DNA of 26,956 nucleotides from positions 1 through 26,956 of the forward strand of contig CAYWMY010000003.1 of the NCBI GenBank assembly GCA_964459405.1, in the 5' to 3' direction. The notes beneath the pieces were generated by a model. The model was not told the origin of the DNA, made no database searches, and saw nothing but the letters and a program-made list of their open reading frames with translations. Below are positions 21,556-26,956 of this stretch, one piece after another. The DNA is from an uncultured Steroidobacteraceae bacterium (lineage in GTDB: Bacteria; Pseudomonadota; Gammaproteobacteria; Steroidobacterales; Steroidobacteraceae). Made by a program: the position numbers and the translations under genes. Numbering within the stretch: position 1 is the first letter of the stretch; each line of letters opens with the position of its first letter.

Positions 21556-22224
21556 TCAGCGCGCGAACAGCCTCGCTGGTGAGAACGCCCGCGCGCGCGC
21601 GCGGGCATGCTCGACGATCAGCCGATAATCGCTGGTCAGAACGCGTGGATCATGCGGTGCCGGGAAAGTGGCAACCAGAGCGCCCGAAGGACCCACGACA
21701 AACAGGCTCGAGCCATGCTCGATCGTGTAAGTTCCATCCGGGCGCACGATGCGCGCATACCCCAGCCCGAAAACCTGCGCCGTACGCGAGATCGCCTGCG
21801 GCGTGCCGGTCGCGGCCAGGAATCCCGGATTGAACGACCGCACATAGGATTGCAGTCGTGCGGCGTCGTCCCGTTCCGGATCAACCGTGATCAGCAGCAC
21901 GCGCGGACGGTCGGTGGCGGGAATGTCCTGCAGCTGGCGGTCCACCTGCGCGAGCATCGCGAGCGTGGTCGGGCAGACATCCGGGCAGGCCGTGAAGCCG
22001 AAGAAGACCAGGGTCCAGTGACCCTTGAACGCGTCCTCGCCGAAGGGCCGTCCGTCCTGGTCCGTGAGCGACAGAGCCGGCAGTGCGCCCGACTCGCTCA
22101 GCAGAGAAGCGCGCACCAGGGGTGGCGGCGCGGGCGGCGAGAACAGTGCGCGCGCGGCCAGGTACCCGAGTACCGTGGCGCCGACCACCAGCACGACGAG
22201 GCGGATCACCCGTGCGGTTGTCAT
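21556..22224 (-). CDS. SCO/SenC-family copper chaperone, N-terminally anchored (222 aa)
   Basis: FFGFTACPDVCP (CxxxCP), ITVDPERD, and a conserved His in IEHGS. ATGA overlap with the hemerythrin stop. Confidence 0.92.
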   Translation of the reverse strand: MTTARVIRLVVLVVGATVLGYLAARALFSPPAPPPLVRASLLSESGALPALSLTDQDGRPFGEDAFKGHWTLVFFGFTACPDVCPTTLAMLAQVDRQLQDIPATDRPRVLLITVDPERDDAARLQSYVRSFNPGFLAATGTPQAISRTAQVFGLGYARIVRPDGTYTIEHGSSLFVVGPSGALVATFPAPHDPRVLTSDYRLIVEHARARARAFSPARLFAR

Positions 22225-22631
22225 GGCTGCGGCTGCTTCCCGGCAACGAAGCGGTGCAGGCGCACATCGAAGCTCGCGAAATGATCCCCGAACCACGCCG
22301 ACAGACGCTCCGAGAAACGGGCCTCGTCGAGAATGCCCTGCTCGCTGACCTCGTCCATGATGTCGCGGATGTCATCGAGCAGCCGCTCGTGATCCTGCTT
22401 GTGTGCATCACGCTCGGGATAGCGCATGGCCTGCATGGACTTCTCTTCCAGCGCGAAATGCGCCGAAATGCGCGCGAGGATCTCGCCGAGGAATCCCTCG
22501 ACACGCTCAGGTGAATGATCCGTGCCGAGAGCAGCGTGCAGATCGTTGATCAGCTGGATCATCTCGCGATGCTCATGGTCCACTTCGGCGATGCCGATGC
22601 TGAACCGGTCCTGCCATTCGAGCACACCCAT
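22221..22631 (-). CDS. Single-domain bacterial hemerythrin (di-iron), 136 aa
   Basis: LEWQDRFSIGIAEVDHEH, HFALEE, HKQDH and HFASFD supply the usual His/Glu/Asp ligand pattern. ATG at 22629-22631 overlaps the upstream TAA; the track start at 22868 is an extension. Confidence 0.92.
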   Translation of the reverse strand: MGVLEWQDRFSIGIAEVDHEHREMIQLINDLHAALGTDHSPERVEGFLGEILARISAHFALEEKSMQAMRYPERDAHKQDHERLLDDIRDIMDEVSEQGILDEARFSERLSAWFGDHFASFDVRLHRFVAGKQPQP

Positions 22632-24745
22632 TACCGCGTCTCCCCGCCCGACAGCGTCGCCGGCACGAGCCGACGACCGAAACTGAAGGCGTTCTCCTTG
22701 CCGCGGAAGTCGATGACGAAATTCTCGCCGGGGGTGACCGTCACGGGGGCCGAGGTCGAGTAGTCGAATCCCGATGCACGCCCGCCGTCCCGCACACGGA
22801 CCGACGCCACGTGCGTGCCGGCCGGCACGCGGAAGCGCGCATAGACCGTCGACGGCCCGTCGTCCCACAGACCCGCCGGCTGATAGGTACCCGCGTGCAT
22901 ACGCCTGCCATCCAGGTCGAACTCGACGTATACGGGCCAGCGGCCGCGTTCACAGGTCGTCGGCCGGCGCTCTTCGAACGGCAGCTTCGCAAGCTCATCC
23001 GGCGTATAGCGCTTGCAGGGCTTCAGCGGCTGACCCGCGTGGCTGAAGCTCAGTTTCACCATGGCTTCGTCACGACCGAGCAGGCCGTAGGCCGGGCGGG
23101 TCGCGAACCAGGCAATGAACACAGCGACACCCGCAAGCACGGCCACCTGTCCAGCCACCCGGAGCGGCATGAGCAGCTGCCGCGGCGTGGCATGCCAGGC
23201 CCTGCCCGTGCGCCCCCTGGTCGGCGCTCCCGCGCGCTCGCGCAGCTGCGCACGGAACTCGCGCAGCTCATGCTGCAGGCGTCGGCCCTCGACCGCCGTG
23301 GTCCAGGAGACGGCGACGCGGTCGCGATCGACACGCTCGCGCAGGTACGGGTCGCGCTCGCTCGCGATGCGCTGCTCGACCCAGCGATCGCCCAGGCGGT
23401 GGAAGCAGTCGCCCGGGGCACACCCCGCGATCAGCACGCCGTCCGCCAGTTTCTTCGAGACCGCGAAATCAATGAACGACGGCGGCAGCATGCCCACGCA
23501 GGGCGCGGCGATCACGGCGACGCCGGGGTCCCGCAGCTGTTCGGCGCGGGTCGCGGGCTCGCAGCGGAACACGAGCACACGATCCTCGCCCTGCAGCGCT
23601 CCGGCCTCGGCCACCACGCGTTCACGGAGGGCCTCGATCGGCCGGTCCCCGAGCTCGATGCCGGGCACGAGCGCGCTCGAGCGCCGGAACGGCGTGGCCG
23701 TGGGGCATGCGCCCACGCACAGGCCGCAACTCGTGCACGCGTCGGGGTCGACGCGTGCCTCCTGATCGAACGTGAGCCCGTCGCTGCGCGGTACCATGGT
23801 AATGGCGCCATACGGACAGTCCGCGAAACAGCGCCCGCAGCCGTTGCAGTTGTCCAGGTGCACCACGGCGGGGGCCGGCTTGCGCAGCGGCGGCAGCCAG
23901 GGCATCAGCGTCAGCAGCACACTGCCGCCGACCAGCAGGGCCCAGAGCGTCCGGCCGTCCAGATAATCGAGCAGCGGGTAGACCGCGAGGTAGAACCAGT
24001 CGAGCCCGACCTCGAAGGCCATACGGTCGAGGTCGGCCGGCGCCTGGCTCAGGGCCGGCACGACCAGCGACAGCAGCAGCAGCGATCCGATCACCATCAG
24101 GCTGAGCGCTCGCGGCGGGTTGACGCGCGCGTGTGCATGCCGCTGGATGTGCACCCACATCATGAGCAGCATCACCAGCGGCACGGCGATGTGGATGTAG
24201 GCCATCAGCGTAAAGAAGCGGCCGCTCAGGTGCGTGCTGTCGAGGAAGTTGCGCGCGATGGGTTCGGCGAAGATGCCGATGCTGTCCAGCCATTCAGAGG
24301 TCGTGATCGCGACGTACTGTGCGAGCGCGTCCCATGCGAGCCAGTAGCCCGTGATGCCGCTGGCGTACAGGAACCAGAGCAGCGGCACGCCCGTGACCCA
24401 GGGGAACCAGCGGTTGCCGCGCATCCGGTCGAGCGAGAACTCCCGCAGCACGTGCAGCAGCACGACGATGACCATGCCGTCGGACGCGTAGCGGTGCAGG
24501 CTGCGCATGATGCCGCCCAGATACCACTGGTCGACCGACAGCTTCTCCAGCGAGCTGTACGCCTGCGTGACACCGGTATCGAAGAAGATGTAGACGTAGA
24601 TGCCCGTGACGGCGACGATCCAGAACAGGAACCAGCCGAGCGGTCCCAGGTGCACCATGGGATTCAGCGTCGGGCCGAAGATCGCGGCGCAGAACTGTTC
24701 GAGGCGCGCGAAGAACACGCGCAATGGAGCCTTGATGAAATTCAA
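22631..24745 (-). CDS. Cytochrome b / 2x[4Fe-4S] ferredoxin / MvhD-FlpD [2Fe-2S] / membrane-anchored C-terminal domain fusion (704 aa)
   Basis: Heme-b His pairs H84/H98 and H185/H199, GYWLAWD, CNGCGRCFADCP and CTSCGLCVGACP, MvhD-like C395, C416 and GCAPGDC (C442, C447), a TM segment at about 530-549, and a beta-rich C-terminus with C577 and C598. TTG start overlaps the upstream TGA. Confidence 0.88.
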   Translation of the reverse strand: MNFIKAPLRVFFARLEQFCAAIFGPTLNPMVHLGPLGWFLFWIVAVTGIYVYIFFDTGVTQAYSSLEKLSVDQWYLGGIMRSLHRYASDGMVIVVLLHVLREFSLDRMRGNRWFPWVTGVPLLWFLYASGITGYWLAWDALAQYVAITTSEWLDSIGIFAEPIARNFLDSTHLSGRFFTLMAYIHIAVPLVMLLMMWVHIQRHAHARVNPPRALSLMVIGSLLLLSLVVPALSQAPADLDRMAFEVGLDWFYLAVYPLLDYLDGRTLWALLVGGSVLLTLMPWLPPLRKPAPAVVHLDNCNGCGRCFADCPYGAITMVPRSDGLTFDQEARVDPDACTSCGLCVGACPTATPFRRSSALVPGIELGDRPIEALRERVVAEAGALQGEDRVLVFRCEPATRAEQLRDPGVAVIAAPCVGMLPPSFIDFAVSKKLADGVLIAGCAPGDCFHRLGDRWVEQRIASERDPYLRERVDRDRVAVSWTTAVEGRRLQHELREFRAQLRERAGAPTRGRTGRAWHATPRQLLMPLRVAGQVAVLAGVAVFIAWFATRPAYGLLGRDEAMVKLSFSHAGQPLKPCKRYTPDELAKLPFEERRPTTCERGRWPVYVEFDLDGRRMHAGTYQPAGLWDDGPSTVYARFRVPAGTHVASVRVRDGGRASGFDYSTSAPVTVTPGENFVIDFRGKENAFSFGRRLVPATLSGGETR

Positions 24746-25536
24746 TGTACGTTCCGCCAGGAAAGGACGATGGCAACGCCCACCATGCCGAGTGCAAGCA
24801 CTCCCGCGACGATCTCCATGATGAGCGAGGGATCGAAGCGATACTTGCCGCTCGCTGGATCATAGATGGTACACAACAGCTTGACCGAGCGGACGAGGTC
24901 GGACAGCGACCCTCGCTCGAGCGCCTGGCCGCGGATCAGCTGCTTCAGCGGCTCGACGAGCGCGGGCGGCCGGAGGTCCTGCCCGTAGACCTGCAGCGCG
25001 ACACGTCCGCCGGGGTCGATGACCGTGGTCTGGATGATGTGATCGAAACCCTTGGGCGACGCCTTGTAGCTGAAACCCACGTCGCGCATGAGTCTCTCCA
25101 TGGTCGCGGCGTCGGTGCTGGCGAAGATCCAGTCGGGCGTCACGACGCCGCGTTCCCGGGCGTAGAGACGCATGCGCTCCGGCGTGTCGTTCGGGGTGTC
25201 GAAGCCCACCGTCAGTACCGTGAAGCTCCCCGGCCCCAGTGCCTGCCGCGCAAGCTTCACGACCTCGCGCAGGTTCACGGTCAGCCCGGAGCAGATCGCA
25301 TAGCAGCTCGTATAGACAAGGCTCAGCACCACCGGCCTGCCGCGCAGTTCAGCGAAGCTGAACCGCGTGCCATCAGCGTCGATCAGCGCATGGTCACCGA
25401 CGACCCGGCCGATCGCCGCCTGGCTCGCGGCCAGTTCGGGATTCTCCGTGACGGGCACGGACCGGGCCGCAAGCAACGGCAGCAACCACAGCGCTGCAAC
25501 CACGGCCGCCCGGAATCTCGTTTGCACTGAAGGCAT
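24742..25536 (-). CDS. SCO-family protein with a signal peptide and a C-terminal TM anchor (264 aa)
   Basis: YTSCYAICS (C78xxxC82), TVGFDTPNDTP, His in GFDHII, and CTIYDPASGKY before a C-terminal hydrophobic helix. Confidence 0.87.
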   Translation of the reverse strand: MPSVQTRFRAAVVAALWLLPLLAARSVPVTENPELAASQAAIGRVVGDHALIDADGTRFSFAELRGRPVVLSLVYTSCYAICSGLTVNLREVVKLARQALGPGSFTVLTVGFDTPNDTPERMRLYARERGVVTPDWIFASTDAATMERLMRDVGFSYKASPKGFDHIIQTTVIDPGGRVALQVYGQDLRPPALVEPLKQLIRGQALERGSLSDLVRSVKLLCTIYDPASGKYRFDPSLIMEIVAGVLALGMVGVAIVLSWRNVH

Positions 25537-25920: not shown

Positions 25921-26956
25921 TCACTTCAGCGGCCAGATCTCGGCCACGTACTTCCAGTTGACGAAGTAGTACAGCACGAAGGAGACGAAGAACACGCCCA
26001 CGAGGACCACGGTACCCGGGATGTACAGCGTGCCCTGGTTGCCGTAGCTCGCGACGGCCGCCGCGGACTTGGCGCCGCTCACAGGCCCCAGTTGCACGGC
26101 CTCCTTGTCACCGATCTTGCGGCCGAACAGCACCGTGCAGACAACGGTTACGACGTACATCGCGCCGCCCAGAGCCGCCATGATCGCCGAGATGCCGTTC
26201 AGCGCCAGCATCAGGAACGCCGCCGGCGAGTACTGGAACTGCGTCAGCGCATCGGCAAAGGTGATGTCCCAGTGCCGCCGCGGCACGCCCAGCGTGCCCG
26301 CGCCCATCATGAACAGCGAGATTCCCGCCGCGCCGAGCCCGAAGATGTACGGCTGCAGCTTGGCCACCGTCGGGAAGATCACCTCACGACGGAAGATCAG
26401 CGGCAGGACGAGGTACGTGATCGCCATGAAGGCGAGCGTCGTACCGGTCACGACCGTCGCATGGAAGTGACCCGGCACGTAGAGCGTGTTGTGCATCGTC
26501 AGGTTGATCTGCTCCGTTCCGAGCACGACGCCCGTGATGCCGCCCAGGAAGCCGAAGTACACGAGCGACATGAACATGCCCGAGAACGCCGGGTTGCCCC
26601 ATGGCGCCTTGCGCAGCCACTCGAACAGGCCCTTCGTGTAGCCCTTGGCGCGCTGCGCGGCCTCGATCGCGCCCGGCACGGTCATGCCGTGGATCATGCT
26701 GCCCATGACCGCCAGGTACATCGCATAGCTGGTATTGAAGATCTTCCAGCTCGAGCTGACACCCGGCTCCGCCAGCAGGTGGTGCGCGCTGGCGAGCTGC
26801 AGGAACAGGATGTACATCAGGTAGGCCGCACGGCTGACCTTCTCGGAGATCGGCTTGGCGCCCAGCACCATCGCACCGATGGCGTACCACACGGCCACGT
26901 GGGCCGAGACGTTGATCTGCTGGGAGGAATGGCCCATGGCCCACCACACCAGCTTG
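25921..26956 (-). CDS. Heme-copper oxidoreductase subunit I, B-family-like fold with Tyr-to-Gln active site (putative eNOR-type nitric oxide reductase), 5'-truncated
   Basis: The frame is open to the window edge (KLVWWAMGHSSQQIN...). CuB/FeB ligands: H at 26929-26931 and SAHH at 26779-26784. HNTLYVPGHFH (26461-26493) matches the ba3-type HNT..VPGHFH, and the VPRR arginine pair is present. The residue at His+4 is Gln, not Tyr. Confidence 0.85.
   Translation of the reverse strand, partial: KLVWWAMGHSSQQINVSAHVAVWYAIGAMVLGAKPISEKVSRAAYLMYILFLQLASAHHLLAEPGVSSSWKIFNTSYAMYLAVMGSMIHGMTVPGAIEAAQRAKGYTKGLFEWLRKAPWGNPAFSGMFMSLVYFGFLGGITGVVLGTEQINLTMHNTLYVPGHFHATVVTGTTLAFMAITYLVLPLIFRREVIFPTVAKLQPYIFGLGAAGISLFMMGAGTLGVPRRHWDITFADALTQFQYSPAAFLMLALNGISAIMAALGGAMYVVTVVCTVLFGRKIGDKEAVQLGPVSGAKSAAAVASYGNQGTLYIPGTVVLVGVFFVSFVLYYFVNWKYVAEIWPLK

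Follow-up and report, generated by a model that had tools for sequence, protein, structure and literature searches.

The contig CAYWMY010000003.1 of an uncultured Steroidobacteraceae bacterium (GenBank assembly GCA_964459405.1), which in its entirety constitutes the 26,956-nucleotide window analyzed here, carries on its minus strand a gene of 704 codons (22631-24745) in which a cytochrome b domain is fused to iron-sulfur (Fe-S) domains. This gene encodes a Rieske-less, c1-less bc-type cytochrome b that, as encoded, has no capacity for a standard Q-cycle. It is a further member of a known family, the architecture, altered quinone-site motif and missing Rieske protein of which were already published in 2014, and what is added here beyond that description is confined to residue-level constraints. 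We lean, with moderate confidence, towards viewing the protein as a two-haem transmembrane wire that would connect a periplasm-side Qo-type quinone pocket with cytoplasmic Fe-S clusters in the service of the adjacent haem-copper enzyme. All genes and features of the window described below lie on the minus strand.

The gene was delimited by its open reading frame and translation, and begins with a TTG start codon. From the N- to the C-terminus, the protein consists of a cytochrome b domain comprising transmembrane (TM) helices A to F (residues 1-290; 23876-24745), a 2x[4Fe-4S] ferredoxin domain, an MvhD/FlpD-like domain, a seventh TM helix and a periplasmic beta domain. Pfam Cytochrome_B was matched over residues 26-200 with 56.5 bits (gathering cut-off 27.2), FlpD over residues 406-503 with 54.1 bits (cut-off 22.3) and Fer4_7 with 44 bits; Cytochrom_B_N_2 was also matched. 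The Pfam model for the C-terminal part of cytochrome b gave no match to the fusion protein at E ≤ 0.01, and the NCBIfam equivalogs for cytochrome b6 and ExtP scored well below their cut-offs. An AlphaFold model of the whole chain reached a predicted local distance difference test score (pLDDT) of 83.9 and a predicted template modelling score (pTM) of 0.80.

To place the cytochrome b domain within its family, a diverse set of 150 representatives was drawn from an exhaustive search of 1.84 billion cluster representatives that returned 4119 matches at E ≤ 0.001. A family profile was built from 109 diverse members, and 120 close homologues formed a second set, to which the counts of 121 given below belong; conservation was read from one alignment (A1) and from a separate MAFFT set. 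Translation and alignment identify two pairs of haem ligands, H84 (24494-24496) and H98 (24452-24454) in helix B (24452-24496), and H185 (24191-24193) and H199 (24149-24151) in helix D (24149-24193), with a spacing of 14 in each helix. All four are invariant in alignment A1, and His is kept at these positions in 136/137, 137/139, 145/145 and 146/147 sequences of the MAFFT set, respectively. Among PDB chains, the family profile matched cytochrome b6 with E = 2e-45 and the best bc1 cytochrome b with E = 1.5e-28. The helix D spacing is nevertheless of the bc1 type, as the family profile alignment shows a one-residue deletion between the two His residues relative to b6.

The HMMER matches to PDB chains end after helix D. 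Downstream of this point, the AlphaFold model shows helix E (residues 212-228), then a short helix that begins at W250, and then helix F (residues 264-283), directly followed by the ferredoxin fold, such that only helices A to F precede the ferredoxin domain and there is no helix G. The top 47 Foldseek matches are all long bc1 or bcc cytochromes b, aligned over about 281-327 columns that span the whole A to F region; for bc1 cytochromes b, 282-302 columns are aligned. The assignment of six helices with a cytoplasmic N-terminus draws on the family profile, Foldseek and a positive-inside charge count. Lys and Arg residues number 3, 4, 3, 2 and 6 in the loops on the negative (n) side of the membrane and 1, 1 and 1 in the three cytochrome b loops on the positive (p) side. 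Because these counts fit the canonical N-in topology, the Fe-S domains are predicted to be cytoplasmic and the C-terminal domain periplasmic.

The initial annotation had read LDWFY at the position of the Qo-site PEWY motif. Translation confirms L248-D249-W250-F251-Y252 at 23990-24004, in the ef loop, with D249 at 23999-24001; its register, examined separately from the PDB matches, is given by alignment and by the model. When the family hidden Markov model was compared with the canonical PetB of the same genome, a second co-linear match, weak at 11 bits, set L-D-W-F on P-V-W-Y, the aligned stretches being '...elslDwfylfp...' and '...EHIAPVWYFTPFY...' of PetB. The equivalence of LDWF to PVWY is further supported by the predicted arrangement of helix E, the short helix at W250 and helix F, together with the Foldseek alignment across helices A to F. 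Compared with the P-[E/D/V]-W-[Y/F] motif, the Asp, Trp and Phe/Tyr are conserved while the Pro at position 1 is absent and replaced by a hydrophobic residue, the family pattern being [LIMVF]-D-W-[FWY]-[YF]-L. D249, for which a conservation check had been proposed, is Asp in 140/145 diverse representatives and in 121/121 close homologues. Such conservation across the alignments supports a functional constraint on the Asp at the Qo position.

No Rieske or c1 partner accompanies this cytochrome b. To survey related loci, 80 of 299 stretches encoding relatives in species-representative genomes were combined with two metagenome loci, for a total of 82; neighbours were scored by tblastn and counted only where the flank was long enough. 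The 80 loci are nearly all labelled as gammaproteobacterial metagenome-assembled genomes (Steroidobacteraceae, Woeseiaceae, Chromatiaceae and others), and the set of 82 is confined to Gammaproteobacteria with at least 46% identity. A Rieske or c1 homologue was found in 0/82 of these loci within about 8 kb, and none is present in the window. The genome does possess a canonical petABC on another contig (C286; locus L002, 2-2482), which encodes a Rieske protein with CTHLGC/CACHGS, a 425-residue cytochrome b with PVWY and a cytochrome c1, and four more Rieske-domain matches lie on further contigs. The initial annotation had also described the bc1-type helix D spacing, a chain ending after helix F and a module devoid of Rieske and c1 genes, from which it deduced that a standard Q-cycle could not run; each of these statements holds.

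A different picture emerges at position 32, upstream of helix A. In a phmmer comparison with PDB chains, LNPMVHLG of the fusion aligned with VNIFYCLGG of spinach cytochrome b6, such that H32 (CAC; 24650-24652) matches Cys35, the residue that binds haem ci (or cn), and this register is also that of the family profile. The alignment of H32 with the haem ci Cys, originally made by eye, was thus reproduced. Of the two residues for which the initial annotation had named variability among homologues as a refutation, D249 withstands the test and H32 fails it. In the diverse representatives, position 32 is occupied by Gln (38), His (34), Tyr (21), Arg (12), Trp (8), Phe (7), Asn (7) or Cys (2), and among the 120 closest homologues by Gln (89), His (25) or Trp (2). 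His is fixed only in about 22 nearest sequences, and below about 67% identity the residue is mostly Gln. Haem iron is not ligated by Gln, Arg or Trp. The surroundings are far more constant, N28, P29 and G34 being conserved in more than 90% of sequences. Where the b6 CxGG motif has its second Gly, the family has Ala and the protein of the window has Pro (H-L-G-P).

Judged from these alignments, the b6-type anchor of haem ci is absent from the fusion and its position is taken by a variable hydrogen-bonding residue. Residue 32, at the n-side surface, is nearly always polar or aromatic with hydrogen-bonding capacity, which is compatible with its shaping a modified Qi site. In the earlier suggestion of such a site facing the Fe-S domains, the orientation is supported: the positive-inside rule and the domain order indicate that the n-side faces the fused Fe-S domains. 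Cys is found at position 32 in 2/133 representatives, only one of which, P0127 (531 residues), keeps the NP..LG motif. No other full representative combines a Cys at the ci position with b6-like surroundings (WNPFYCLGAL in P0127), and this protein might retain a covalent haem ci.

Helix F is followed by the ferredoxin domain (residues 293-352; 23690-23869; Pfam Fer4 families), where Cys 300/303/306/310 and 337/340/343/347 provide for two [4Fe-4S] clusters; all eight are at least 94% conserved among the representatives. The MvhD/FlpD-like domain (residues 388-505; 23231-23584) was recognized by Pfam FlpD and by MvhD chains of the PDB, with matches to 5odc_D and 8rvu_F and a Foldseek TM-score of 0.73 (target-normalized) against 8rvu_F. 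Its Cys 395, 416, 442 and 447, the presumed ligands of a [2Fe-2S] cluster, are kept in 124/131, 122/132, 119/128 and 102/129 representatives, respectively.

The remainder of the chain, delimited with AlphaFold and hhalign, comprises the seventh TM helix (about residues 526-549) and a beta-sandwich domain of roughly 150 residues (22634-23170), for which the Pfam scan returned no family match. The domain is modelled with a pLDDT of 90, and its fold matches are weak and to generic beta-sandwich modules (E ≥ 4e-3). Two Cys residues, C577 and C598 (22952-23017), do not vary within the closer gammaproteobacterial set and are present in about 60% of the diverse representatives; they probably form a clade-specific disulfide rather than serve as cofactor ligands. 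The domain was also considered as a cluster-carrying substitute for the Rieske protein, a role that was rejected given its two Cys only, their conservation in the closer subset only and the lack of any match to a redox-protein fold. In the distant locus L088 (8001-10255), SCO1 is followed by a short fusion of 532 residues without the C-terminal domain and then by an overlapping gene of 219 codons. The product of this last gene is homologous to the TM-plus-beta region of the window protein (hhalign 99.5%, E = 4e-23), and since a separate gene for it exists, this region is a separable subunit. In another family member, P0256 (763 residues), the periplasmic beta domain is followed by a cytochrome c domain of class I (CKVCH; Pfam Cytochrom_C), which would place a c-type haem on the p-side.

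The genes around the fusion are tightly coupled to it. Its TTG start overlaps the stop codon (TTGA) of an upstream SCO1/SenC-like gene (24742-25536; Pfam SCO1-SenC), and its own stop overlaps the start of a downstream bacteriohemerythrin gene (22221-22631; NCBIfam bact_hemeryth, 96 bits), the product of which has no signal peptide. Further downstream lies a second, canonical SCO1 gene with a CPDVCP motif (21556-22224; Pfam SCO1-SenC, 128 bits). On the other side, the contig end truncates the gene for a haem-copper subunit I, of which the 3' part remains (25921-26956; Pfam COX1) and which reads GHSSQQ at the site of the cross-linked Tyr of oxygen reductases. The full subunit I gene and a CuA-type subunit II are present in the related metagenome locus L003. 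The subunit II orthologue there (L003:6549-7094), the counterpart of which in our genome would fall beyond the window end, has a complete CuA motif (H...CNEYCGLGHHTM). No gene for a cytochrome c or cupredoxin donor occurs in the haem-copper cluster.

This arrangement recurs throughout the synteny set. A gene of 56 codons, subunit II and subunit I precede the fusion in 59/59 loci, an SCO-like gene is directly upstream in 76/76 (and also in the distant loci L087 and L088), and hemerythrin is directly downstream in 75/75. The second SCO1 gene is less constant, being found downstream in 30/70 loci. The fusion and hemerythrin were also considered as an alternative haem a synthase system, a notion that was dropped for want of any support, as the genome has a normal CtaA.

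Distant homologues labelled as Nitrospirota, Nitrospinota or 'Deltaproteobacteria' have a haem-copper enzyme adjacent in 5/6 loci examined. In L090, the fusion adjoins SCO1-UbiA-COX1-COX1; L089 holds, on the other strand and about 2 kb from the fusion, a fragment weakly similar to COX1. In L091 (8001-13078), a member of 656 residues lies directly upstream of COX2-COX1-COX3-COX4, hence the association extends beyond eNOR-type enzymes. L087 (4583-10049) reads COX2-COX1-UbiA-SCO1-fusion-NuoF-like-second fusion, the two cytochrome b/Fe-S/MvhD paralogues having 702 and 682 residues and the NuoF-like gene between them encoding a protein of 433 residues with Complex1_51K and NADH_4Fe-4S domains. This gene order hints at a possible connection to NAD(H) at the cytoplasmic end of the wire. 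Closer to the window, the fusion was found in only about 7/41 genomes (G001-G040 and the present one) of the same family or order, and is sometimes split (G037, G021). This distribution is that of a patchy accessory module and suggests that it is acquired and lost as a whole.

The architecture of the fusion was described by Kao and Hunte (2014, PMC4122944) as that of a 'PDWF-FeS clade', with sequences from Magnetospirillum and Turneriella, in which a cytochrome b including the Qo-motif region is fused to 4Fe-4S and MvhD domains and no Rieske protein is found in the gene cluster. The same authors reported PVWY as the Qo motif of beta- and gammaproteobacteria, in line with the canonical PetB of our genome. 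The protein of the window resembles this published description in its 4Fe-4S and MvhD fusion, its Asp at motif position 2 and Phe at position 4, and its lack of a Rieske partner. It differs at motif position 1, which is L248 here and Leu, Ile, Met, Val or Phe in the family sampled, rather than Pro. The haem-copper link, the periplasmic C-terminal domain and the state of the ci position are absent from their account. Subfamily H of cytochrome b (Dibrova et al. 2017, PMC5600118) is likely the same as the fusion family.

With cytochrome b6 and subunit IV (e.g., PDB 6rqf), the fusion shares the N-x-x-Y/x-[C]-L-G motif preceding helix A and the GY-L-WD of helix C, and its helices E and F and ef loop correspond to subunit IV. 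Unlike b6f, it lacks Cys35 and covalent haem ci, a Rieske protein, cytochrome f and helix G, it has a helix D spacing of 14 instead of 15, its helices E and F are joined on the same chain and its Fe-S domains are fused on the n-side. NarI of NarGHI, HdrE of HdrDE and QmoC work with a site for quinol beside the outer haem, a stack of two b haems that crosses the membrane and a chain of Fe-S clusters in the cytoplasm. The fusion would be alike in outline to these redox loops, but their cytochrome b fold is unrelated to one that matches Pfam Cytochrome_B and Cytochrom_B_N_2, and the resemblance is thus one of analogy and not of membership.

A further documented counterpart is the eNOR operon of Ferrigenium straubiae, which encodes cytochrome b/[Fe-S] proteins along with subunits II and I and sco1 (bioRxiv 10.64898/2026.01.22.701106). 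These proteins were detected in the proteome of denitrifying cultures, and a supercomplex with eNOR was suggested in the same study. One of the Ferrigenium paralogues has FAD- and NADH-binding domains, unlike the operon of the window, which has hemerythrin and no flavoprotein. The isolation of an eNOR from Magnetospirillum (Murali et al. 2024, PMC11214002) also fits the association of the fusion with eNOR.

Taken as a two-haem wire, the protein could operate as follows. Quinol (or quinone) would react at the periplasm-side pocket, where D249 would handle the proton, and electrons would pass from haem bL to haem bH and on to the fused Fe-S chain rather than to a quinone at a Qi site. The Fe-S domains in the cytoplasm would thereby replace the Qi/ci site as the exit or entry on the n-side: helix F is predicted to end in the cytoplasm and to lead directly to two [4Fe-4S] clusters and one MvhD-type [2Fe-2S] site, while the seventh helix would put a cofactor-less beta domain in the periplasm. 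In the gammaproteobacterial clade, the coupled hemerythrin would probably act as the cytoplasmic partner; in other clades, a NuoF-like flavoprotein would probably do so. Instead of taking part in a bc1-type Q-cycle, the module would work for the neighbouring eNOR-like haem-copper enzyme.

Several points weigh against this scheme. Ferredoxin-type [4Fe-4S] clusters are often of low potential, which makes a flow from quinol to the cytoplasm uncertain. The Qo motif has a hydrophobic residue instead of Pro at its first position, Y256, the equivalent of Tyr279, is not conserved, and quinone binding at the Qo-like pocket is deduced from a single conserved Asp and the fold. Hemerythrin as a partner is confined to the gammaproteobacterial clade, and one distant homologue (L086) has no haem-copper enzyme within 8 kb. 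Finally, members of the family are known from their sequences and from the proteome detection in Ferrigenium.

The tight linkage to SCO proteins invites another explanation, in which the fusion would be a quinone-independent wire or maturation factor. A cytoplasmic reductant would feed the MvhD and [4Fe-4S] centres, from which electrons would cross the two haems to the periplasm and keep SCO, copper or the CuA Cys residues reduced, the Asp being structural. We consider this unlikely, although SCO genes are indeed the tightest conserved neighbours of the fusion, a second SCO1 is present in the operon and a haem o synthase gene in relatives. A general assembly role would also suit the occurrence of the fusion beside eNOR-, ba3- and A-type enzymes alike, and its patchiness among related genomes is in keeping with it. 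Yet the full Qo-type architecture is retained, with its cd helices, ef helix and near-invariant Asp, all of which would be superfluous for a simple wire. Known SCO reduction relies on thioredoxin-like TlpA or DsbD and not on haems, and the detection of the Ferrigenium proteins in denitrifying cultures (bioRxiv 10.64898/2026.01.22.701106) argues against it as well.

The same neighbours could instead take part in a bifurcating, Rieske-less quinol oxidase for a nitric oxide (NO) reductase. One electron would go to a periplasmic copper centre, either the SCO-like protein or the CuA of subunit II, and on to NO, and the other would cross the membrane via bL and bH and reach the Fe-S chain. The copper centre would be positioned by the beta domain (or a cytochrome c in some relatives), and the cytoplasmic acceptor would be hemerythrin here and, elsewhere, NAD+ reached through a NuoF-like or flavin partner. 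Such a system would account for the conserved Qo Asp, for an SCO-like gene that is always adjacent and translationally coupled, distant clades included, and for a CuA subunit II without a cytochrome c gene in the operon; the cytochrome c domain of P0256 and the NuoF-like gene of L087 would also find their place in it. A similar supercomplex was envisaged for Ferrigenium (bioRxiv 10.64898/2026.01.22.701106), and the anammox Rieske/cytochrome b complexes that carry NAD(P) oxidoreductase subunits have been proposed as a precedent (cited in PMC5600118). However, nothing supports the docking of SCO or CuA at the Qo pocket, the beta domain has no recognizable redox fold, SCO proteins are normally copper chaperones, and electrons passing from haem bH to NAD+ would have to move against the membrane potential, which is energetically demanding. 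Bifurcation in this general form therefore appears doubtful. In its specific form, a quinol oxidase lacking both Rieske protein and cytochrome c and built around an eNOR-like NO reductase, with copper taking the first electron at the Asp pocket and the Fe-S chain the second, it appears improbable. If true, electron bifurcation at a Qo site would exist in a new form, linked to nitrous oxide (N2O) production.

The remaining proposal, raised in the initial annotation, that His32 ligates an extra non-covalent haem at the old ci position (or carries another cofactor), making a three-haem cytochrome b that feeds the Fe-S domains, is very unlikely because position 32 varies and is mostly Gln outside the nearest relatives: the exact alignment with Cys35, the His fixed in the closest homologues and the location on the Fe-S domain side speak for it, but the family has lost the second Gly of CxGG, which provides the space for haem ci, and since Cys35 of b6f anchors the haem by a thioether instead of serving as an axial ligand (Kao & Hunte 2014, PMC4122944), a His at this position has no analogous role.

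The two-haem wire that we favour bears on an enzyme family of wider relevance, as eNOR is reported to be a major source of N2O that was recognized only recently (Murali et al. 2024, PMC11214002). The fusion stands beside a haem-copper enzyme in every complete related locus examined, which makes it an obvious candidate for the electron link from the quinone pool or cytoplasmic carriers to eNOR. D249, the four haem His residues, the Fe-S Cys residues and the N28-P29 and G34 motif constitute the constrained targets in this protein; residue 32 is not among them. If the Qo-like pocket is active without a Rieske protein, a bc-type quinol site would be re-usable outside the Q-cycle.

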